From: Chloroflexota bacterium
Lineage (GTDB): Bacteria; Chloroflexota; Anaerolineae; J102
Direction of reading: 5' to 3'
Assembly: GCA_041918515.1 (NCBI GenBank)
Contig: JAYRVO010000064.1
Location: 23,050-87,049, forward strand
DNA length: 64,000 nucleotides
The position numbers and the translations under genes were made by a program. Shown one piece after another: positions 4,737 to 63,622 of the stretch; the first letter of the stretch is position 1; each line of letters begins with the position of its first letter. The notes beneath the pieces were generated by a model. The model had not been told where the DNA came from. It saw only the letters and a program-made list of their open reading frames with translations, and did no database searches.

Positions 4737-4815
4737 CTGGTTATTGGTAATTGGTTATTGGCGATTGACCGCCAATAACCAATTACCAATAACCAATAAC
4801 CAATAACCAATAACC
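4737..4815. repeat. CCAATAA-family heptamer hairpin (inverted ggttattgg / ccaataacc arms plus a tandem ccaataa run)
   Basis: Seen directly: ggttattggtaattggttattggcgattgaccgccaataaccaattaccaataaccaataaccaataacc, between hisB and hisH. Confidence 0.85.
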
Positions 4816-4818
4816 ACC

Positions 4819-5445: not shown

Positions 5446-5535
5446 ACAAGTAAATAAGGAAACAAGTAGACAAGGAAACAAGTGGATGTGCGCCCTTGTC
5501 TACTTGTCTACTTGTTTCCTTATCTACCCAAATTA
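5446..5535. repeat. inverted-repeat hairpin (gtagacaag...cttgtctac) after hisH
   Basis: tagacaagtaaataaggaaacaagtagacaagg, then its reverse complement ccttgtctacttgtctacttgtttccttat. Likely a terminator or structured element. Confidence 0.6.
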
Positions 5536-8660: not shown

Positions 8661-8750
8661 GTTGGTTATTAGTTATTGGTTATTAGTTATTGACGTTTTC
8701 TACCAATAACCAATAACCAATAACTAATCTCCAATAACCAATCCCCAATC
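8661..8750. repeat. CCAATAA-family heptamer hairpin between GNAT and hisF
   Basis: ggttggttattagttattggttattagttattgacgttttctaccaataaccaataaccaataactaatctccaataacc. Confidence 0.85.
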
Positions 8751-8754
8751 TCCC

Positions 8755-9865: not shown

Positions 9866-10100
9866 GGCGTGAGGCGTGAGGCTGTAATGGGACATGATTG
9901 TATTTGTTCACTAGCCACCTGACAGTTTCCGAAAATAGGACGCGGACGAGCGCGAAAAACGCGGAAAAAGCGCTTCTTTGCCGTGAATTTGGAGAAAAAT
10001 CCGCGTTCATCCGCGTTTATCCGCGTCCCATTCCCAAAGTGTCAGGTAGCTAGTTTATTCGTGCCATTCGTATATTCGTGTTATTCGTGATGAAAAAAGT
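9848..10100. repeat. composite repeat region: (tgaggcg)x4, a ~140-bp element with imperfect terminal inverted repeats (ctagccacctgacagtttcc / ggaaactgtcaggtagctag-like) and internal GGACGCGGA/TCCGCGTCC palindromes, then a tattcgtg-type heptamer run
   Basis: Seen in sequence at 9848-9890, 9922-10058 and 10060-10098. AT-richer than the surrounding DNA. Confidence 0.6.
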
Positions 10101-14127: not shown

Positions 14128-14177
14128 ATTCGGCAACCACGAAGACACGAAGAAACAAAAACACGAAGACAGTAAAG

Positions 14178-14570
14178 ATGGCTCATCTCCCCATTTCTGA
14201 ACAGGAAGAGCATATCGCCAGGCATATTGTGGACGCGGCGTTTACGGTTCACCGCACGCTTGGGCCTGGTCTGCTGGAGAGCGTGTATGAAGTTTGTTTC
14301 TGCCACGAGCTTGCTAAACGAGGCCTGTCACACCAACGACAGGTTGTCGTACCGATTCTTTACGATGGCCTCTGCATCGATGATGGCCTGCGGCTCGATG
14401 TTCTTGTCGAAGAGTTGGTCATTTGCGAATTGAAAGCCGTGGAAGTGGTTCATCCTGTATTTACGGCGCAATTGCTGACCTATCTGAAACTGACCGAAAA
14501 ACGGCTGGGATTTCTCATCAACTTCAATGTGCCCTTGATCAAGCAGGGTATCCAACGCTTTGTTCTTTGA
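14178..14570 (+). CDS. GxxExxY protein (PD-(D/E)xK nuclease-like fold family)
   Basis: 131 aa. GPGLLESVYEVCFCHEL is the GxxExxY motif. Conserved ..GFLINFN C-terminus. Confidence 0.65.
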   Translation: MAHLPISEQEEHIARHIVDAAFTVHRTLGPGLLESVYEVCFCHELAKRGLSHQRQVVVPILYDGLCIDDGLRLDVLVEELVICELKAVEVVHPVFTAQLLTYLKLTEKRLGFLINFNVPLIKQGIQRFVL

Positions 14571-14940
14571 ACTTTGTGCCTTTGTGTCTTCGTGGTGAAT
14601 ATAACCACCTCCACTTTCACACCAGCCATGCTCTTCCGCTCCTTGTTCTTTGACCTTCGTGCCTTTGTGTCTTCGTGGTGAATATAACCACCTCCACTTT
14701 CACGCCAGCTATGCGCTTCCGCTCCTTGTTCTTTGACCTTCGTGCCTTTGTGTCTTCGTGGTGAATATAACCACCTCCACTTTCACGCCAGCTATGCGCT
14801 TCTGCTCCTTGTTCTTTGACCTTCGTGCCTTTGTGTCTTCGTGGTGAATATAACCACCTCCACTTTCACACCAGCTATGCGCTTCCGCTCCTTGTTCTTT
14901 GACCTTCGTGCCTTTGTGTCTTCGTGGTGGATGGAGTTTT
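14561..14940. repeat. 83-bp tandem repeat, about 4.6 copies
   Basis: The motif tgttctttga recurs at 14561, 14644, 14727, 14810 and 14893 (period 83). Unit: ..gtgcctttgtgtcttcgtggtgaatataaccacctccactttcac(g/a)ccagc(c/t)atgcgcttc(c/t)gctccttgttctttgacc. An imperfect inverted copy (cacgaagacacgaag) lies at 14130-14170. Confidence 0.9.
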
Positions 14941-19317: not shown

Positions 19318-20136
19318 ATGCCCCCACCTCCCATCGCCATCCTCCACGCCCCCGGCACCAACCGGGATACCGACGCCGCCATCGCTTTCGAGCTGGCTGG
19401 CGGCAGCCCTGAAATCGTCCACGTCAACCAACTTCTCGCTGGCGAACGCCGCCTCGCTGACTACGCCCTGCTCGTCGTTCCCGGCGGCTTCTCGTATGGC
19501 GACGACCTGGGCGCGGGCAAACTGTGGGCCGTGCGCCTGCTGCACGATCTCGGCGAGCAGCTTCGTGCTTTTGCGGATGCGGGCAAACCCATCCTCGGCA
19601 TCTGCAACGGATTCCAGGTGCTGGTGAAGACGGGGCTGCTGCCGGGAGCAGGGGACGAAGGTGGCAAGTGGCAGGCGGCAATCTCCAATAACCAATCTCC
19701 AATAACCAATCTCCAACTCGCCACCCTCACCCGCAACGAATCCGCGCATTTCGAATGCCGATGGGTGTGGCTAGAGCCGAATGTTGCCAATCGTTCACCC
19801 TGGTTGGCCGGACTCGACCGCATCCATTGCCCGGTAGCGCATGGCGAAGGCAACTTCATGACCCGCGACGCCGCTGCACTCGATGCCATCCTGTCGCAAA
19901 ACCTCGTTGCCTTCAGCTATGTCGATGCCGATGGCCGCCCCGGCCCCTATCCGATCAACCCCAACGGCTCGGCCGCCGACATCGCCGGCGTGACGAACGC
20001 CAGCGGCAACATCCTCGGCCTGATGCCACATCCCGAAGACCATATCTTTCCCTGGCAGCACCCGGCGTTCCATCGCGGCACGGCCGGCTGTTCCGGTCTG
20101 AAACTTTTCCAGAATGGCGTCTCCATGACAAAGTGA
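19318..20136 (+). CDS. purQ: phosphoribosylformylglycinamidine synthase subunit PurQ (glutamine amidotransferase)
   Basis: IAILHAPGTNRD, GGFSYGDD, GICNGFQVL (Cys) and HPE motifs. Contains an in-frame ccaataacc/ccaatctcc insert ([17 protein letters not shown]). Confidence 0.85.
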   Translation: MPPPPIAILHAPGTNRDTDAAIAFELAGGSPEIVHVNQLLAGERRLADYALLVVPGGFSYGDDLGAGKLWAVRLLHDLGEQLRAFADAGKPILGICNGFQVLVKTGLLPGAGDEGGKWQAAISNNQSPITNLQLATLTRNESAHFECRWVWLEPNVANRSPWLAGLDRIHCPVAHGEGNFMTRDAAALDAILSQNLVAFSYVDADGRPGPYPINPNGSAADIAGVTNASGNILGLMPHPEDHIFPWQHPAFHRGTAGCSGLKLFQNGVSMTK

Positions 20137-20212
20137 CTGGGTGACAAGGTGACAAGGTGATCGCAGCGACATCACCTTGTCACCTTGTCACCTTGTCACC
20201 TTGCCACCGTAT
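20137..20212. repeat. GGTGACAA-family octamer hairpin
   Basis: gtgacaaggtgacaaggtgatcgcagcgacatcaccttgtcaccttgtcaccttgtcacc, a perfect inverted arrangement. Confidence 0.85.
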
Positions 20213-33018: not shown

Positions 33019-33180
33019 TTTGGCGTATAGCGTATTTCGTATTACGTGTTCCGTAGCAATCACCCTGAGAGATACGAAATACGTAATACGGGATAAAATT
33101 ATTGCGTATTGCGTATTTCGTAGGAATAACGCACCATTCCAAGAAATACGCAATACGTAATACGCAACACGCAATACAAC
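33019..33180. repeat. CGTAATA/CGCAATA-family heptamer hairpins
   Basis: gcgtatttcgtattacgtg..., ...gaaatacgtaatacgg..., ...attgcgtattgcgtatttcgtagg...gaaatacgcaatacgtaatacgcaacacgcaatac. Confidence 0.85.
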
Positions 33181-34501: not shown

Positions 34502-34582
34502 GTAGAGATTAGAGATTAGAGATTGCAATCTCCAATCTCTAATCTCTAATCCCCAATAACCAATCTCCAATAACCAATAACC
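34502..34582. repeat. GAGATTA / CCAATAA heptamer hairpin
   Basis: gtagagattagagattagagattgcaatctccaatctctaatctctaatccccaataaccaatctccaataaccaataacc. Confidence 0.85.
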
Positions 34583-34585
34583 ACC

Positions 34586-40708: not shown

Positions 40709-44479
<3,771 letters not shown>

Positions 44480-44519: not shown

Positions 44520-45737
44520 TCAGAGCAATTGGCTGATGAAAGCGGCGACGGGGCCGGCGCCGTTGGGTCGTTGGGAGTGCTGGCGGGGTAAAGAGAGCAG
44601 GTCGGGGATGCGGGGAATCCAGGCGCCTTCGGCAAAGGCGGCGCCATCGATGGCGAAGCCAGGCATGGAGCGGTCGGCAAAGGTGGCGAAGGTTTCGGAT
44701 TCACGAAAGTGGGGGCGGGTGACGTAGCCGTAGGGGATGCCGGCGTGGTAGGTTTCGGCCAGGGTGCTGTAGCCCAGTTTGCCGATGAGGGCGTCGGCGG
44801 CGTTGACGAGGTCGGGGTGATAAAAGGGGGATTGGGTGGGCAGCAGGAGGATGTTTTCGTTGCGCACCATCGTTTCGCCCACGCCGGGGATGATGAATTG
44901 GATGGGGCGCAGTTCGTGCAGGCGGTGGAGGAAGGTGTAGTCCCAAGCGACGCCGCCCATGGTGATGATGACTACGGCGGCCTCCGGTGAGACGCCGAGT
45001 TGCTGGCGAATGGTCGCGGCAGGCGTGCGCGGTTCGCGGCTGACGGGCGGAACGGTGAGATCGGCCGCGCAGGGTTGGCAGACGGGTTGGATCTGGATGT
45101 GGTGGTCGGCTTGGGCGAAGAGTTGGGCAAAGAGGTCGATGTAGGGCAAAAGGCGGGGTTCGGCGGCCGCGTAGCCGGCGTAGATCCAATCCCAGGTGAA
45201 GTTTTCGATGAGGATGGAGGGTAAGCCGGCGGCGCGGGCGACGCTGAGGCCGAGGGGGGAGATGTCGCAGAGTACGAGCGTGCAGCCGAGATCGTGGAGT
45301 TGGTCGGCAAGGCGGCTGAGGGAGGCTTCGTCCCGAGGCTTCGTCCCGAGGCTTCGTCGCGAGCGCCCCTCGGCCTGAGACTTCGTCGAGCTCAGTCGAG
45401 ACGCTCGGGACGAAGGCTCAGCCGAGCGGCTCAGCCCGAGGGGCTCAGCCCGAGGGGCGACAGGGAAGGGGGCGAAGTGAGCCAGTCGCTCCACCGTGGC
45501 GGCCGCGTCTTCGATCAGGGCTGTGGTTTGCACCAGGCCGATGTCGGTGAGGAGTTCATGATAGCCAAAGGGCTGGCGCAGGGTCTGGCGGAAGAACCAG
45601 GCGGGGACGGTGGTGAAGATTTCGCAGCGGAGGGCCGGGTTTTGCGTCTGGAGGGCGTCCATGACGGCGATGGCCCGCGCGGCGTGGCCGAAGCCGTGGG
45701 GGGTGATGAAGTAGGCAATGGTAGATTGCGGATTCAC
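44520..45737 (-). CDS. glycosyltransferase, GT1/MGT-like
   Basis: N-terminal GFGHAARAIAV and C-terminal UDP-sugar-binding-like region. Central in-frame insert PRAEPLGLSRSAEPSS..LGTKPRDEA. Confidence 0.6.
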   Translation of the reverse strand: MNPQSTIAYFITPHGFGHAARAIAVMDALQTQNPALRCEIFTTVPAWFFRQTLRQPFGYHELLTDIGLVQTTALIEDAAATVERLAHFAPFPVAPRAEPLGLSRSAEPSSRASRLSSTKSQAEGRSRRSLGTKPRDEASLSRLADQLHDLGCTLVLCDISPLGLSVARAAGLPSILIENFTWDWIYAGYAAAEPRLLPYIDLFAQLFAQADHHIQIQPVCQPCAADLTVPPVSREPRTPAATIRQQLGVSPEAAVVIITMGGVAWDYTFLHRLHELRPIQFIIPGVGETMVRNENILLLPTQSPFYHPDLVNAADALIGKLGYSTLAETYHAGIPYGYVTRPHFRESETFATFADRSMPGFAIDGAAFAEGAWIPRIPDLLSLPRQHSQRPNGAGPVAAFISQLL

Positions 45738-48984: not shown

Positions 48985-49744
48985 CGCCTTTCCTGCCCTG
49001 CTCGACTTCGAGCAGCGTTTGGGCTTCGCCTTCAGCGACAAATCCCTGCTCCTGCGCGCGCTCACCCATCGCTCCTATCTGAACGAAACCGCCATCGCCT
49101 ACGCCGACAACGAGCGCCTGGAATTCCTCGGCGACGCCGTCCTCGACCTCATCGTTGCTGAACTGCTCTACCAACGCTTCCCCGAACAACGCGAAGGCTT
49201 CCTCACGGCTTTGCGCGCCAAATTGGTGCGCCGCGAAACCCTGGCCCAGTTCGCCCGCCAACTCGAACTGGGTCCTCTTCTCCTCATGGGCAAGGGCGAA
49301 GAAGATGGCGGGGGCCGCGAGCGCGACGCCATTCTGTGCGCTACTTTCGAGGCCCTGGTGGGAGCCATGTATCTCGACCAGAGCCTGAATGCCACCGCCG
49401 CCTTTCTCATCCCCTTCGTCCGGCCAGAGATCGACCTTGTCAGCGACGGATACTTGCACAAAGACCCCAAGAGCCTGCTCCAGGAATGGGCGCAGGCCGA
49501 GCTGAACGCTACGCCCACCTACATCACCACCGCCAGCGAAGGCCCCGACCACGCCCGCGCCTTCACCGTCGAGGTGCGCATTGCTGGCGTCACCTACGGC
49601 GTAGGCAAAGGCCAGAGCAAGCAACGCGCTGCCCAGGAAGCCGCGCGCGCCGCCCTGGCAGCCTTACCCCGTGCGGGCGACGCCGATGATAGGGAGACGC
49701 AGGGACAGGGTGGCAAGGTGACGGCGCTGAGTACAGCGCGGTGA
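48965..49744 (+). CDS. rnc: ribonuclease III
   Basis: NERLEFLGDAVL (RNase III signature) and a dsRBD in the C-terminus. Confidence 0.9.
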   Translation: MASNQSNAFPALLDFEQRLGFAFSDKSLLLRALTHRSYLNETAIAYADNERLEFLGDAVLDLIVAELLYQRFPEQREGFLTALRAKLVRRETLAQFARQLELGPLLLMGKGEEDGGGRERDAILCATFEALVGAMYLDQSLNATAAFLIPFVRPEIDLVSDGYLHKDPKSLLQEWAQAELNATPTYITTASEGPDHARAFTVEVRIAGVTYGVGKGQSKQRAAQEAARAALAALPRAGDADDRETQGQGGKVTALSTAR

Positions 49745-49850
49745 CAGGGTGACAAGGTGGCGGCGCTGAGTACAGCGCGGTGACAAGGTGACAAGGTGAT
49801 TCTGCCCTCCGCCCTCCGCCCTCCGCTCTCCGCTCTCTGCTCTCTGCCTC
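49728..49850. repeat. GGTGACAA octamer and CTCCGCC heptamer repeats
   Basis: aggtgacggcgctgagtacagcgcggtgacagggtgacaaggtggcggcgctgagtacagcgcggtgacaaggtgacaaggtg, then ccctccgccctccgccctccgctctccgctctctgctctctgcc. Confidence 0.85.
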
Positions 49851-56589: not shown

Positions 56590-56740
56590 ACGGGGGGATT
56601 GGTTATTGGTTATTGGGGATCAGCAATTCCAAATTTGTGGACGCGGATCGAAAGAACACGGATTCTTGGCCATAAAACTATCCGTGTTTCCCCCATCCGT
56701 GTCCACAAGGAGATTGGAGATTAGGGATTGGGGCATGTCT
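56590..56740. repeat. composite element: ggttattgg repeats plus a GTGGACGCGGAT-family palindromic unit plus ggagattgg repeats
   Basis: ggggattggttattggttattgggg..caattccaaatttgtggacgcggatcgaaagaacacggattcttggccataaaactatccgtgtttccccc is related to the 100-bp unit at 60221-60547. Confidence 0.7.
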
Positions 56741-57563: not shown

Positions 57564-59029
57564 CACAGGTAGCCCAGGCTGCGCAGGTGCCGTTCCAGGC
57601 CGGGGTCCAGGGTGGCGGCCGGGGCTTCGTCGCGAGCGCTCAGCCGAGCGGCGGCTGCGGCGGCTGGGGTCAGCGAGGAGAGGCGGGCGTCGAGCGCGGC
57701 CGCAAGGTCGGCGACGCGCTGGGGTTGGGCCGCGGCCAGGTCTTGGCATTCGCCGGGGTCGTCCTCCACGTCGTAGAGTTCGCTCTCGCCGCGGCTGCTG
57801 CGGATGAGCTTGTAGCCGCCGCGCACGAGCGCATCGAAGGTGCGGTCGTAGCCTTTGCTGGCGGGGTCGAAGCGGGGATGGCGGCGGGCGAAGCGATGGC
57901 GGTGGGGGGCGGTGTATTGGATGATTGCGAATTGCGAATTGCGAATTGCGAAATCGGAGGAGAGAAGGGAGCGGCCGGGGAGGGCTTCGTCCTGAGGCTT
58001 CGTCCCGAGGCTCAGCCCGAGGGGCTCAGCCCGAGGGGGGGGACGGTGGTCGGGGGGGGCGGCGGCGAGGTCGAGGAGGGTGGGGAAGAGGTCGGTGTGT
58101 TGGACGGGGGCGTCGTCGTCGCCGGGGGGGAAGACGCTGGGGTAGTGGATGAGGAGGGGGACGTGGGCCAGGCTGTCGTAGACGCAGTATTGGTGGTCCA
58201 TGAGGCCGTGGTCGCCGATGTTTTCGCCGTGGTCGGCGGTGACGATGATCATCGTGTTTTCCAGACCGCCGACGGCGCCGAGGAAGTCGAGCAGCTCGCC
58301 CAGTTTGTGGTCGACGTAGTTGATCTCGGCGTCGTAGAGGGCGCGCAGGCCGAGGAAGTCGAGGTCGGTCATGGGGATTTCGCCGGCCATGTAGGCCCAG
58401 GCGTCCTGGTTGGCCTGGCGGGCGCGGCGCAGGGCGGCGGGCTGTAAGAGGCGCTCGGCGTAGCCGGGGGGCGGCTGGTAGGGCAGGTGGGCGTCGAGGT
58501 AGAGGCCGAAGAGGAAGAAGGGGCGAGCGGGGTCGCGTTCACGCGCCCACCAGCGCTGCACATAGGTGTTGAGTTTGGCCGCGCCTTTGTCGTGGCGTTC
58601 GAACACGCGCTTGCGCAGGGCTTTTTCCCAGCGAGGGAAGGGGAGGCGGCCCTGGCTGGGGAGCAGCCGCCAGAGTGAGTAGAAGCGCTCGAAGCCTCGG
58701 TCGAGGCCGAAGTGCGGTCCCACCCAGGCGTTGGTGGAGAAGGCCGCCGTCTGGTAGCCCAGTTCGCGCAGGGCGGCGGCCAGGGTGGGGAGGGCGGGGT
58801 CAAGAAGGCGCTGCTCGACATTGACGCCGTGTTGGCGGGGGAAGAGGCCGGTGAAGAGGCTGGCGTGGCTCTCCAGCGTCCAGACAGAGGCGGCGCGGGC
58901 CTGGGTGTAGCGCCGGCTGGCCGCGGCCAGGTTATCGAGGCGCGGGGTCACGGGCAAGGGATTGCCGTAAGAGCCGAGGCCATCCGCGCGCACGCAGTCG
59001 AGGACGAGGAGGAGGAGGTTGGGGGGCAT
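57563..59029 (-). CDS. sulfatase family protein (alkaline-phosphatase superfamily)
   Basis: LLVLDCVRAD (Cys/Ser for formylglycine), ADHGE motif. Contains in-frame inserts PRAEPLGLSLGTKPQDEA and FAIRNSQFAI (from ttgcgaa repeats). Confidence 0.75.
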   Translation of the reverse strand: MPPNLLLLVLDCVRADGLGSYGNPLPVTPRLDNLAAASRRYTQARAASVWTLESHASLFTGLFPRQHGVNVEQRLLDPALPTLAAALRELGYQTAAFSTNAWVGPHFGLDRGFERFYSLWRLLPSQGRLPFPRWEKALRKRVFERHDKGAAKLNTYVQRWWARERDPARPFFLFGLYLDAHLPYQPPPGYAERLLQPAALRRARQANQDAWAYMAGEIPMTDLDFLGLRALYDAEINYVDHKLGELLDFLGAVGGLENTMIIVTADHGENIGDHGLMDHQYCVYDSLAHVPLLIHYPSVFPPGDDDAPVQHTDLFPTLLDLAAAPPDHRPPPRAEPLGLSLGTKPQDEALPGRSLLSSDFAIRNSQFAIIQYTAPHRHRFARRHPRFDPASKGYDRTFDALVRGGYKLIRSSRGESELYDVEDDPGECQDLAAAQPQRVADLAAALDARLSSLTPAAAAAARLSARDEAPAATLDPGLERHLRSLGYL

Positions 59030-59581: not shown

Positions 59582-60019
59582 TCACCTTTCGAGAAGAATG
59601 GTCACCGGCCCGTCGTTCACCAGGCTGACCTGCATCTCGGCCTGGAAGACGCCGGTGGCCACGGCCAGACCCTGCGCCCGCAGGCTGGCGACGACATGCT
59701 CGACCAGTGGCTCGGCCACGGCGGGAGGCGCCGCCTCGGTGAAGGAGGGGCGGCGGCCTTTGCGCGCGTCGGCGTAGAGCGTGAACTGCGAGACGACGAG
59801 CACTGTCCCGCCCACGTCGGCCAGGGCCAGGTTGGTGAGGCCCTGCTCGTCCGCGAACAGGCGCAGCGTGGCGATCTTGCTTGCCATCCACTCGGCCTGC
59901 TCGCGGCCATCGCTGTGGGTCACGCCCAGCAAGACCAGGTAGCCGCGCCCGATGGCGCCGACGATGTGATCGTCGACCGTGACCGAAGCGGCGCTGACGC
60001 GCTGGATGACGGCTCGCAT
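59582..60019 (-). CDS. dtd: D-aminoacyl-tRNA deacylase
   Basis: [22 protein letters not shown] and the C-terminal NDGPVT motif. Confidence 0.9.
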
Positions 60020-60034
60020 GGGTGCAGTTTAGCA

Positions 60035-60180
60035 GTCAAGGTGACAGGGTGACAAGGTGGCAGGGTGACAAGGTGGCAGGGTGACAGGGTGACAGGGTGA
60101 CAAGGTGACAAGGTGACAGGGTGACAAGGTGACAAGGTGACAAGGTGACAAGGTGATAAGGTGATGGGGTGACAAATCAT
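60035..60180. repeat. GGTGACAA/GGTGACAG octamer array (about 17 units)
   Basis: caaggtgacagggtgacaaggtggcagggtgacaaggtg...gtgacaaggtgataaggtgatggggtgacaaatc. Confidence 0.9.
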
Positions 60181-60204
60181 CCGTTCCTTCGCTGCACTCA
60201 GGAC

Positions 60205-60548
60205 AAGGTTTTCCCTATCTGCGTCCACAGATTGACCACACGCAGAGCAATTCCAAATTTGTGGACGCGGATGGAAGGAACACAGATTTTTGACCAAGAA
60301 CTATCCGCGTTTCCCTATCCGCGTCCACAGATTGACCACACGCAGAGCAATTCCAAATTTGTGGACGCGGATGGAAGGAACACAGATTTTTGACCAAGAA
60401 CTATCCGCGTTTTCCTATCCGCGTCCACAGATTGACCACACGCAGAGCAATTCCAAATTTGTGGACGCGGATGGAAGGAACACGGATTTTTGACCAAGAA
60501 CTATCCGCGTTTCCCTATCCGCGTCCACAGATTGACCACACGCAGAGC
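60205..60548. repeat. 100-bp tandem repeat, about 3.4 copies, each with an internal 12-bp inverted repeat (atccgcgtccaca / tgtggacgcggat)
   Basis: The motif gcgtccacag recurs at 60221, 60321, 60421 and 60521. Unit identity is above 97%. The array abuts the glmS stop codon. Confidence 0.9.
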
Positions 60549-60549
60549 C

Positions 60550-62397
<1,848 letters not shown>

Positions 62398-62439
62398 AGC
62401 GTTTCTCCGTTGGTAAAAGTGGATGGTGAGGAGGCCACA

Positions 62440-62662
62440 GCCTGACCGCCGCGGGCGCGCGTTCGCAGCATCCCGCTCGAGCAGGCAACGTTGGTACTGG
62501 GAGAAGAGACGTCCGGGTGTGGCTTCCCGGGGAGGCATCCGCCGATCTTTCGCTTTTCCCCGCTGGGACGATCCCAGGGGTTGGCTCACACGCGTGTGTG
62601 AGAACCTCCACCTCGTCTACTGCGCCCGCCTCAGGCGAGTTCGTCGCAGCACTGGCGCTTCG
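62440..62662 (-). ncRNA. glmS ribozyme (GlcN6P-responsive self-cleaving riboswitch) in glmS 5' UTR
   Basis: The minus strand reads AAGCGCCAGUG..UAGACGAGGUGGAGGUU..AUCGGCGGAUGCCUCCCCGGGAAGCC. It matches the conserved glmS core blocks AGCGCCAG, GACGAGG(A/U)GGAGGUU and CGGCGGAUGCCUCCCGG in the correct order. It lies immediately upstream of glmS. Confidence 0.75.
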
Positions 62663-62893
62663 TCTGCTCCACTGGTTCGATTCATCAAGATATAGGCGTC
62701 TCCTAAACGTGAAACAGCCTGCCCTGAGTGCGTTGTACTCAACGCCGTCGAAGGGTGAGGCGTGAAAATTTCCGATGTTTTCTCGCGTCTCACGAGCGAT
62801 GAAGGCGATTATACTTCCGAGCCGCCGTCGGGGGCAAAGAACGGCGGCTGACCATGACCGAATCCCATTTTCGCCTGCCATCATCACCAGGTC

Positions 62894-63622
62894 TCATACG
62901 TAATGCACCCAATCGGGCGTGGCCGCCGGCGGAGTGTACACCCCGCGCATCGTCGCTGGCAGCAGTCCGGCCAATTCCTGCATGGCGAAATCAGTGACAA
63001 CGGCCTCGGCCTCCCGCCGCGGCAACCCGGCCGGCATCTCCACGCGATACGGTCTCCCCCACCGCATGGCAATGGGCGTCCGTCGACCGCGTTTCAAGGT
63101 GACAGGAAAGTCCTCCGTGCCCCACACAGCCACCGGCAACAACACAGCCGGTGTGCGCCGCACCAGGAAGGCCATCCCCCGTCGGCCCATTTGCAGCGAA
63201 AAATCGACCTGATTGCGCGTGCCTTCCGGCGCGATCAACAGCGCGTGGCCATGCTCCAACACCTGTTGACTGGCCCGCAGCGCGTCCACATCGGCCTGGC
63301 CGCGCGCCACGAGGATGACGCCGAAGCTGGGGATGAAGCGACCGATGAACGGGATGTCGATGGACTCCTGCTTGCCCAGGGGCGCTGTGTAGCGCAGATG
63401 GTACAGGCTGGCCATGATCACAGCGGGATCGGTATAGTGGATGTGGTTGTAATAGATGATCAGCGGCCCTGTCCGCGGCACTCGCTCGCGTCCCTCCTCT
63501 TCGATGCGCATGAGCAGGTGCACCAGCCGATACAAGGTAAAGAACCAAAAGCGCCGGCTGAACCGCCGGGTGACGATTTCGGGGTGAACGGCGTCGAAAG
63601 GACTGTAGGTCGAGTCAGTCAT
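62894..63622 (-). CDS. plsC: 1-acyl-sn-glycerol-3-phosphate acyltransferase
   Basis: NHIHYTDP (HxxxxD) and APEGTR motifs. Confidence 0.8.
   Translation of the reverse strand: MTDSTYSPFDAVHPEIVTRRFSRRFWFFTLYRLVHLLMRIEEEGRERVPRTGPLIIYYNHIHYTDPAVIMASLYHLRYTAPLGKQESIDIPFIGRFIPSFGVILVARGQADVDALRASQQVLEHGHALLIAPEGTRNQVDFSLQMGRRGMAFLVRRTPAVLLPVAVWGTEDFPVTLKRGRRTPIAMRWGRPYRVEMPAGLPRREAEAVVTDFAMQELAGLLPATMRGVYTPPAATPDWVHYV

Follow-up and report, generated by a model that had tools for sequence, protein, structure and literature searches.

The tandem array that directly follows glmS in a Caldilineales DNA stretch of 64,000 nt (hereafter the window) is on balance probably a recent local amplification of a REP/BIME-like gene-end hairpin that acts on transcript 3' ends, a reading drawn from the position and the structure of the array. 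What is new is the plan of these hairpins: they are REP-like and located at gene ends, but their arms are built from a 10-nt unit. No description of them was found in the literature, where the family motifs gave only chance primer matches.

Structure and setting of the array downstream of glmS

Tandem Repeats Finder assigned positions 60210-60548 a period of 100, 3.4 copies, 98% matches and a score of 657, and a repeat search recovered three copies in register with a mutual identity of 98-100%. Only three substitutions are present in the 339 nt (at 60220, 60413 and 60484). Since the copies are 98-100% identical, the amplification is recent. An earlier note on this DNA had described about 3.4 copies of a 100-bp unit between dtd and glmS, which is confirmed by both repeat analyses and by the ORF and Pfam assignments of the two genes (Table 1).

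The 100-bp unit consists of a 78-nt imperfect palindrome and a 22-nt spacer. According to the note, each unit contains ATCCGCGTCCACA, 30 nt and TGTGGACGCGGAT. This inverted repeat is indeed exact (ATCCGCGTCCACA at 60317-60329, TGTGGACGCGGAT at 60360-60372) and extends to 17 nt with 94% complementarity, but the phase was wrong: the hairpin with the 30-nt loop is the junction of two adjacent elements and is confined to the array. In its natural phase the element reads TGTGGACGCGGAT, 44 nt and ATCCGCGTCCACA. This pairing of the arms is also present in the single copy at 56622-56708 and in all members outside the window, and because this single copy occurs once and with that pairing, the true phase of the element is the one with its arms 44 nt apart.

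The array begins with a lone right arm, which is followed three times by the 78-nt palindrome and the 22-nt spacer; the arm at 60217-60233 pairs with the downstream left arms at 88%. Each arm contains the core AC(R)CGGAT twice, in the form of GTGGACGCGGAT, then GGAAG, then GAACAC(A/G)GAT, and the arms alternate in orientation at intervals of 44 nt and 22 nt over the 3.4 periods. With at most one mismatch, GTGGACGCGGAT occurs 10 times in the window compared with 0.57 expected, a number reached in 0 of 100 shuffles. The inner unit of copy 3 is GAACACGGAT, identical to the 10-nt unit of the phage hairpins described below, and the 3' half of the spacer (AGCAATTCCA) is common to the array and the single copy at 56622. 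The array is not a CRISPR, as had already been stated: all units have the same spacer, and cas genes were not seen.

Table 1. Features in and around the array, related loci, and distances from the preceding stop codon
Feature	Coordinates	Strand	Stop codon and distance	Basis or remark
glmS	60550..62397	-		ORF; stop TGA 60550-60552, 1 nt from array end
Tandem array, 3.4 x 100-bp unit	60210..60548		glmS, 1 nt	TRF; in-register copies; 3 substitutions
Truncated first element, right arm only (TTTCCCT + ATCTGCGTCCACAGATT)	60210..60233			Sequence; left boundary of the array
Palindromic element, copy 1	60256..60333; 17-nt terminal arms 60256-60272 / 60317-60333, 44 nt apart			Inverted-repeat search
Palindromic element, copy 2	60356..60433; arms 60356-60372 / 60417-60433			Inverted-repeat search
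Palindromic element, copy 3	60456..60533; arms 60456-60472 / 60517-60533			Inverted-repeat search
22-nt spacer GACCACACGCAGAGCAATTCCA	60334..60355; again 60234-60255, 60434-60455; truncated 60534-60548			Sequence
Octamer run (GGTGACAA)x17.4, 139 bp	60037..60175			Between array and dtd
Promoter-like site for dtd, inside octamer run	60026..60055	-		Consensus match only
dtd (D-aminoacyl-tRNA deacylase)	59582..60019	-		Pfam PF02580 (Tyr_Deacylase), full length, E 2e-58
Single copy of the array element	56622..56708; arms 56635-56663 / 56680-56708, 29 nt, 79% complementary		rsmI, 30 nt	Sequence comparison; rsmI by Pfam
Composite palindrome	9910..10054; outer 24-nt inverted repeat 9910-9933 / 10031-10054		hisI, 45 nt	Between hisI and hisE
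Locus L016			mdh, 11 nt	
Locus L014			ppdK, 26 nt	1 nt from convergent Uma2 gene
Locus L010			BON-domain gene, 7 nt	
Locus L012			PNPOx-like gene, 111 nt	24 nt before next start
Phage loci			Various genes, 12-50 nt	7-30 nt before next gene

On the minus strand, glmS is followed after 1 nt by the array and, after a further 34 nt, by the octamer run and dtd; the neighbours of the array are glmS, dtd, a sulfatase and rsmI. A protein search with the glmS product returned a 615-aa protein (P0001) that is 100% identical and thousands of further homologues, which place the window in the Caldilineales, phylum Chloroflexota. The array had been said to be bracketed by a 146-bp octamer run. Since the run, of 139 bp, lies on the dtd side only, this description does not hold. 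The only other contig of this organism that was found, a 2-kb Logan contig (L001) retrieved by means of dtd, ends inside the octamer run. The start of dtd is 190 nt from the array, and its promoter-like site combines a -35 TTGTCA and, after 18 nt, a TG-extended -10 TAAACT that ends 6 nt before the ATG. In relatives with an 82% identical glmS the upstream genes are kept, a glycosyltransferase gene lies 72-88 nt downstream of glmS, the downstream synteny is different and the element is absent from the glmS 3' side. Because glmS of these relatives is followed by another gene and no element, the array sits at a synteny break.

The folding check proposed in the note gave RNA energies of -29 to -70 kcal/mol for the family hairpins, on both strands and without a sense-strand bias; as DNA, the hairpins reach z-scores of -4.6 to -14. 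Copy 1 of the array folds at -38 kcal/mol as RNA on either strand, copy 2 as DNA at -19.0 (+) and -22.4 (-) kcal/mol (z -4.6 and -5.8), and the composite palindrome at 9910-10054 has a dG of -38.9 (z -7.1). The whole array compared with shuffles gave z-scores of -7.5 and -9.5 on the two strands; such strong values are expected because the units are palindromes. Since no sense-strand bias was observed, nothing in the folding favours RNA over DNA as the active form. A terminator scan found no U-tract terminator in 59900-60700, and no T-run follows the family members. The canonical intrinsic terminator, a GC-rich hairpin followed by a U-tract, was therefore rejected as a class.

An RNA function specific to glmS, as a small RNA derived from the 3'-UTR or a cis structure for amino-sugar control, would fit the strong structure of the array and its location directly 3' of glmS on the sense strand. 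It is nevertheless highly improbable: the same element also follows the unrelated rsmI, mdh, ppdK and phage genes, none follows glmS in the relatives mentioned above, and Rfam gave no match in the whole window at the gathering score and, under permissive settings, only sub-threshold matches of generic miRNA hairpins to the elements. A transcription attenuator, one of three roles offered in the note, is unlikely as well because the array lies 3' of glmS and not 5' of a regulated gene. A type III toxin-antitoxin system (ToxI-like) was rejected, since the downstream gene is a bona fide dtd and not a ToxN/AbiQ-type toxin gene.

According to the reading that we favour, one 100-bp segment, comprising the 78-nt imperfect palindrome and 22 nt of flank, has recently been amplified locally in tandem. 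The array would be the VNTR-type product expected of unequal recombination or slippage between palindromes, with a copy number that should differ between strains. The elements would form the transcribed end of the preceding mRNA, here that of glmS, and would fold into very stable long hairpins that may pause or stop RNA polymerase, serve as substrates of a double-strand RNase or hold up 3' exonucleases. The 3' end of glmS would thereby be defined and stabilised, and glmS would be uncoupled from dtd with its own promoter-like site. Points against this reading are the lack of a U-tract after the hairpins, the lack of a sense-strand bias in folding, a 10-nt core that is conserved far beyond the needs of a hairpin, a one-armed phage repeat that forms no hairpin, and members located just before start codons.

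Members of the hairpin family within and beyond the window

The related single unit that had been noted at 56620-56700 is real and covers 56622-56708, agreeing with the array unit at 75 of 90 aligned positions. Its 12-13-mers are terminal (TGTGGACGCGGAT, 46 nt and ATCCGTGTCCACA), the pairing extends to arms of 29 nt, and the copy is located within a run of the heptamers ATTGGTT / GGAGATT. The second proposed relative, an element at 9922-10058, extends from 9910 to 10054 and shares with the array only the cores GGACGCGGA / ATCCGCG. Its interior is a family variant with a 10-nt period (GGACGCGGA ... ATCCGCGTTC ATCCGCGTTT ATCCGCGTCC, with ATCCGCG three times at 10-nt intervals), and this core is nested within a separate 24-nt inverted repeat. 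The target-site duplication that the note had suggested seeking around this element was not found at 9910-10054. Metagenome variants such as L012 link the array-type and the 10-nt-period forms. The window as a whole is rich in runs of 7-9-nt repeats, and hairpin elements are located within such runs; a PDDEXK_3 gene in the window is bracketed by repeat-built hairpin arms.

The existence of a GTGGACGCGGAT-palindrome family, as claimed earlier, is supported by these three loci of the window and by further copies elsewhere in which the palindrome is kept. A scan of metagenome contigs with both arms yielded nine loci, six of them distinct, all of which are intergenic palindromes of 57-76 nt that have the same two-unit arms but differ in their loops; that the outer 10-12 nt do not vary across members is imposed by the search patterns. 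The arms of the family are composed of 2-4 direct copies of the 10-nt unit RRAC(R)CGGAT. In L012 each arm contains three perfect 10-nt units and the perfect stem measures 32 bp; the perfect stem of L015 measures 34 bp. Several family members occur in pairs or in tandem: L016, which is the same locus as L009, contains two copies 90 bp apart, L008 two adjacent copies, and the phage contig L053 paired copies 224 bp apart. The unit spacing is 14-15 nt, not 10, in the window and other Caldilineales members, while a strict 10-nt period is found in many members, including L012, positions 9999-10026 of the window and phage loci. Arms within one element are 0.77 identical and those of different elements 0.62, some phage coordinates being approximate. 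RNAalifold covariation on the outer stem was uninformative, as the search pattern had fixed those columns.

Three of the contigs (L011, L013 and L014) represent one locus, which belongs to the Caldilineales by a 95% identical ppdK, and L010 was assigned to the Pyrinomonadaceae (Acidobacteriota) because named MAG proteins match the product of a neighbouring gene with 85-90% identity. When viral contigs were scanned with relaxed patterns, the 10-nt unit, often exactly GAACACGGAT, was retrieved in hairpins whose arms have 2-4 units each. Such hairpins are present on about 10 contigs of uncultured phages, with up to three on one contig of 44.8 kb, and genes for a lambda-type portal protein and a DnaB helicase identify these contigs as phages. 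In the phage contig L049, a triple direct repeat at 2207-2240 has only one arm, cannot form a hairpin and lies 14 nt before an ATG. No family match was obtained by blastn in cultured phages and plasmids, and tblastn with the phage portal protein gave no match either. A genome-collection scan with both 12-nt arms returned a single match, which lies within coding sequence of a Puniceicoccaceae MAG, is unrelated in its interior and was judged to be due to chance. By sequence, the family occurs in at least two Caldilineales organisms and in uncultured phages, and probably in an acidobacterial lineage. Common descent is argued for by the shared order of GGAC-type and AAAC/GAAC-type units. For L010 and L012, which are pure 10-nt-period members, convergence on the same seed might conceivably account for the resemblance.

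Family members are usually located 1-50 nt past a stop codon, in co-directional or convergent gaps, and this intergenic placement near the 3' end of the upstream ORF was found in the window and at the other Caldilineales, Pyrinomonadaceae and phage loci (Table 1). Some members lie close before start codons (L008, L012 and phage loci). The placement reported for REPs is the same (PMC3733652).

The ends of the arms, (C/T)G(C/T)GTCCACA, and the spacer TTGACCACA resemble a DnaA box, with about 11 box-like sites in 340 bp, and the array could on this basis be a DnaA-box cluster for titration or replication control. TTGTCCACA, which we take to be the high-GC DnaA box consensus, is matched with at most one mismatch 18 times in the window compared with 9.4 expected, five times within family loci, and the TGTGGAC / GTCCACA termini are conserved in most members. 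However, the resemblance covers only 6-8 of 9 bases of the consensus, and the 13 matches outside the family loci, against the 9.4 expected, represent no enrichment. Moreover, neither a GC-skew switch nor dnaA or dnaN was seen near the array, and the phage and Pyrinomonadaceae variants (AACCACGGAT ends; L046) are devoid of the GTCCACA end. A DnaA cluster is thus scarcely credible.

Replacement of hairpins at gene ends

The locus downstream of the Pyrinomonadaceae BON-domain gene contains a slot, beginning 5 nt past the TAA stop, that holds three alleles. The first is a GTGGACGCGGAT-type hairpin present in L010 and L031, and in L046 without the GTGG head and with flanks that are only 87% identical. 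The second is a hairpin with arms of CTTTGTG heptamers (L032-38 and L047-48), and the third has GCAGGAGC-type arms (L017-22 and L039-40). At this slot a hairpin is always present while its sequence is replaceable. L031 and L032 encode one and the same BON protein, and the identity of the two contigs is 99.95% upstream of the module (2,024 nt) and 98.9% downstream of it (1,400 nt), but the modules themselves, of 59 and 95 nt, are unrelated in sequence. Such a change in identity across the module suggests import of the alternative allele by recombination.

After ppdK, related Caldilineales with flanks 88.6% identical to those of L014 carry heptamer runs and a 28-nt tandem array but no element. 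This array has four copies in three assemblies and two in a fourth that is otherwise 99.3% identical, and arrays in the gene-end slot thus vary in copy number. No empty site was found among the alleles compared; alleles were replaced, not absent.

A purely selfish origin has to be considered in view of this turnover. The hairpin would then be a non-autonomous REPIN/MITE-type element without host function, mobilised in trans by, for example, a Y1 HUH RAYT-like transposase, and the array a neutral by-product of its processing. The dispersal of copies with conserved termini over loci, genomes, two phyla and phages is consistent with such an element, as are the unrelated hairpin modules at one site in the nearly identical BON-locus strains and the position of the window copies inside short-repeat runs or another palindrome; some REPs have been described as located within other repeats (PMC3733652). 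The lack of target duplications would agree with HUH-type insertion, and there is a precedent in the Acidobacteria, where atypical structured repeats are tied to class 3 Y1 transposases (PMC6006769). Conversely, tblastn at E<0.1 with approximate E. coli RAYT and IS200 TnpA queries, a weak test, detected no ORF resembling a Y1 transposase in 415 kb (the window and 56 loci). No empty site was observed, and with the downstream flank of the replaced BON allele less similar than the upstream one, homologous recombination could have imported it. In addition, a lineage with no more than 87% identity has retained the GGACGCGGAT-type hairpin at the BON site, where the hairpin is therefore vertically inherited, and the arms, unlike REPs, are not stem-loops themselves. 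We therefore regard the selfish explanation as fairly unlikely.

Conservation of the 10-nt core well beyond what a plain hairpin needs points to a sequence-specific partner, either a protein or a mobilising enzyme. Protein binding had been offered in the note and is kept here as a live minority rival, though an improbable one: the 8-nt core AC(R)CGGAT, about one helical turn apart and in both orientations, would bind a DNA-binding protein, for example a repressor, nucleoid protein or phage regulator, and the array between glmS and dtd would bind or titrate this protein with high capacity. The core remains constant while loops, spacers and unit number vary, and in the window it is limited to the three loci and one stray occurrence (18 matches versus 5.6 expected); the strict 10-nt period of many members and the one-armed phage repeat before an ATG fit as well. 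There is, however, no candidate protein, the unit spacing in the window and other Caldilineales departs from 10 nt, and the arms co-vary as a palindrome. Sister strains moreover fill the BON position with hairpins of unrelated motifs, which suggests that the site needs geometry and not sequence.

A broader interpretation is put forward tentatively. The hairpins might be one family of an unrecognised, fast-turnover class of "repeat-armed hairpin cassettes", with arms of tandem 7-10-nt units and a slot just 3' of stop codons, which would be swapped for unrelated members between near-identical strains and would sometimes hold an ORF in the loop, such as PDDEXK_3 in the window. Such cassettes might be common to Chloroflexota, Acidobacteriota and their phages through a sequence-specific mobilising or binding machinery, as a prokaryotic counterpart of foldback-type elements.

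Comparison with known repeats and significance

The favoured reading of the array as an amplified gene-end hairpin draws on the likeness of the family to REP, BIME and REPIN sequences, which are dispersed intergenic palindromic repeats near the 3' end of the upstream ORF. Both occur as singletons, pairs and tandem clusters reiterated with flanking DNA, both lack target duplications, and termination and mRNA stabilisation are the roles proposed. The array has the inverted arms and the two alternating conserved spacers of a BIME-2, although its units are not REPs. GTAG- and CGTC-tagged REPs are known from Enterobacteria and Pseudomonas (PMC3733652). In contrast to the REP pair of 20-40-nt stem-loops, the family unit is one palindrome of 57-90 nt, and its arms are direct repeats of AC(R)CGGAT that are not self-complementary and do not form the REP unit, a 20-40-bp stem-loop with a stem of 5-13 bp. 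Neither tag could be recognised with confidence in its defined position: many copies start with GTGG, matching a terminal GT[AG]G, but this start is imposed by the search pattern and is absent from L046 and phage members, and CGTC lies inside the arm and not at its end. REPs are accompanied by a cognate RAYT gene flanked by the repeats (REPtron), and no RAYT was found in the 415 kb covered here; they also reach tens to hundreds of copies per genome, and the 64 kb of the window contain three family loci. A further difference is that the family is common to phages and probably a second phylum. The family behaves like REP/BIME elements while falling outside the REP sequence definition. Among the three roles considered in the note, a REP-like one comes closest, whereas the MITE alternative with target duplication is unsupported, as no duplications flank the copies. 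Inverted repeats are present, but a flanking duplication was seen in 0 of 10 copies inspected and not at 9910-10054, and no parent insertion sequence with the ends of the element was found in the window and the sequences of the loci.

The MIRU-VNTR of mycobacteria are intergenic tandem repeats of 40-100 bp between co-directional genes with a strain-variable copy number. The array is likewise an intergenic tandem repeat between co-directional genes, and its copy number is expected to vary. MIRUs, however, contain small ORFs whose ends overlap the stop and start codons of the neighbouring genes, and they are not built around a long palindrome, whereas the period of the array, 100 bp, is not a multiple of 3, the start of dtd is distant and the unit is palindromic. 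The mycobacterial TRIT motif and the RNase III sites of phage T7 are long conserved hairpins after genes, some of them between convergent genes, and intercistronic RNase III hairpins of phages fill short gaps between co-directional genes. The family shares with them the long conserved hairpin directly after genes and, in phages, the placement in short gaps; it differs in that it lacks a U-tract, has arms of repeat units peculiar to itself and is known from sequence.

Integron attC sites (59-base elements, such as the Vibrio VCRs) also follow ORF stops directly; they are imperfect palindromes with a length of 57-141 nt, a variable centre and two binding boxes in each arm. The family resembles them in the palindrome after stops, the two units per arm, the variable centre and the module-like turnover. 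The assignment was nevertheless rejected: RYYYAAC / GTTRRRY is absent from all copies, whose ends are (T)GTGGAC... / ...GTCCAC(A), the flanking genes are housekeeping genes in conserved order and not cassettes, and there is no integrase nearby. The STRR heptamers of cyanobacteria and the TAACTGA repeats of Beggiatoaceae, Cyanobacteria and Bacteroidetes (PMC4679880) are, like the family, intergenic short-unit repeats shared by distant phyla without a known transfer mechanism. Those repeats are direct and mostly before starts, whereas the units of the family are inverted arms that form hairpins after stops.

Caldilineales are abundant Chloroflexota of activated sludge and soils, and to our knowledge their non-coding DNA is essentially unstudied. 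Our results show that their gene ends bear a structured, sequence-conserved hairpin family with a plan unlike that of classical REPs, the tandem arrays of which break short-read assemblies. Interest in the family is raised by its distribution across phages and phyla and by its cassette-like turnover. The array is a candidate VNTR for strain typing, and the motif is a possible marker for linking phages to hosts. If the hairpins are mobile, a mobilising activity that crosses phyla would be implied; if they are terminators or processing sites, they would provide a handle on how transcript ends are defined where U-tract terminators are scarce.

Short tandem runs in intergenic DNA

The intergenic DNA of the window is rich in tandem runs of 7-9 nt detected with TRF, whose units include CCAATAA, CAATCTC, GGTGACAA, AATACGC and CGTGAGG, among others. 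In the TRF output, many of these runs occur as neighbouring inverted pairs and could form hairpins with repeat-built arms, and such runs also enclose the hairpin elements at 56622 and 9910. The GGTGACAA octamer was detected by TRF at several loci (20126-20208, 49704-49799 and 60037-60175), one of which is an inverted pair (TGACAAGG x4.4 / TCACCTTG x4.6), while another falls within a 39-bp x2.5 repeat. Tandem units of 13-14 nt, GGCTTCGTCCCGA followed by GGCTCAGCCCGAGG, constitute a further dispersed repeat with three distinct loci in the window.

Coordinates of repeat features and associated sites (window positions unless an outside contig, L-number, is given)
Feature	Position	Strand	Details
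PDDEXK_3 (GxxExxY-like) gene	14178-14570
Short-run examples	4738-4816, 5446-5527, 8662-8753, 20126-20208, 33100-33177, 34503-34583		TRF
GGCTTCGTCCCGA / GGCTCAGCCCGAGG repeat	40808-40864, 45322-45458, 57983-58038		TRF
Sigma-70-like promoter match for dtd	60026-60055	-	-35 TTGTCA, TG-extended -10 TAAACT; within octamer run
BON-locus hairpin slot	L010 9842-9912; L031 2025-2083; L032 2025-2119; L017 3514-3586; L046 1740-1800
ppdK-downstream region compared	L041 12706-12930 vs L044 6711-6925
Phage repeat loci	L049 2207-2240; L053 8711-8800 and 8935-9024; L058 1958-2036 and 3918-3993

Repeat-armed elements at other gene ends

Besides the 100-bp array, the window contains a second tandem array at a gene end. 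This array, an 83-bp unit x4.5 (97%) at 14560-14929, lies immediately 3' of the PDDEXK_3 gene, the stop codon of which sits within the first unit. Short repeats of the CACGAAGA type form a 24-nt inverted repeat (14136-14159 / 14573-14596, 88%) that flanks the gene, and the 83-bp unit is composed of the right repeat arm plus 45 nt. The locus as a whole (14136-14929) looks like a version of the repeat-armed hairpin, the gene-end palindrome with arms of short direct units, with an ORF inside.

Outside the window, a Pyrinomonadaceae locus consisting of a BON-domain gene and then an amidohydrolase gene carries, among very close strains, three unrelated repeat-armed hairpins in one slot 5 nt past the BON stop codon. 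The L017 allele of this slot retains a degenerate GGACGCGGAT-type right arm. In Caldilineales GCA_019695115.1 and related assemblies, an (A/G)GCGTGA heptamer run is found 3' of ppdK; a 28-nt tandem array comes next, and has four copies in three assemblies but two in a fourth. Several hairpins with (G/A)AAC(A/G)CGGAT units were also found in uncultured high-GC phage contigs, where they occupy the short intervals that separate co-directional genes. One phage locus is a one-armed triple direct repeat located 14 nt before an ATG. A search for relatives of these hairpin-bearing contigs among cultured phages found none.

The region between glmS and dtd

On the minus strand, every octamer of the run on the dtd side of the 100-bp array contains TTGTCA. 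Since the predicted -10 of the promoter match ends 6 nt before the dtd ATG, use of this promoter would yield a leaderless dtd mRNA. L001 (Logan SRR26835467 contig), the sole other assembly of the window organism found in this analysis, stops inside the octamer run, 55 nt upstream of dtd. Short-read assemblies break at such repeats, so some caution is needed about how many copies the 100-bp array has in the window.

Upstream of glmS, the gene order of an acyltransferase, a gap of ~500 bp and glmS is common to the window (60550-63622) and the relatives L003 and L006. The 3' side of glmS, in contrast, is occupied by the array and dtd in the window and by a glycosyltransferase in the two relatives. 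Judged from this gene order, the 100-bp array marks a rearrangement junction.
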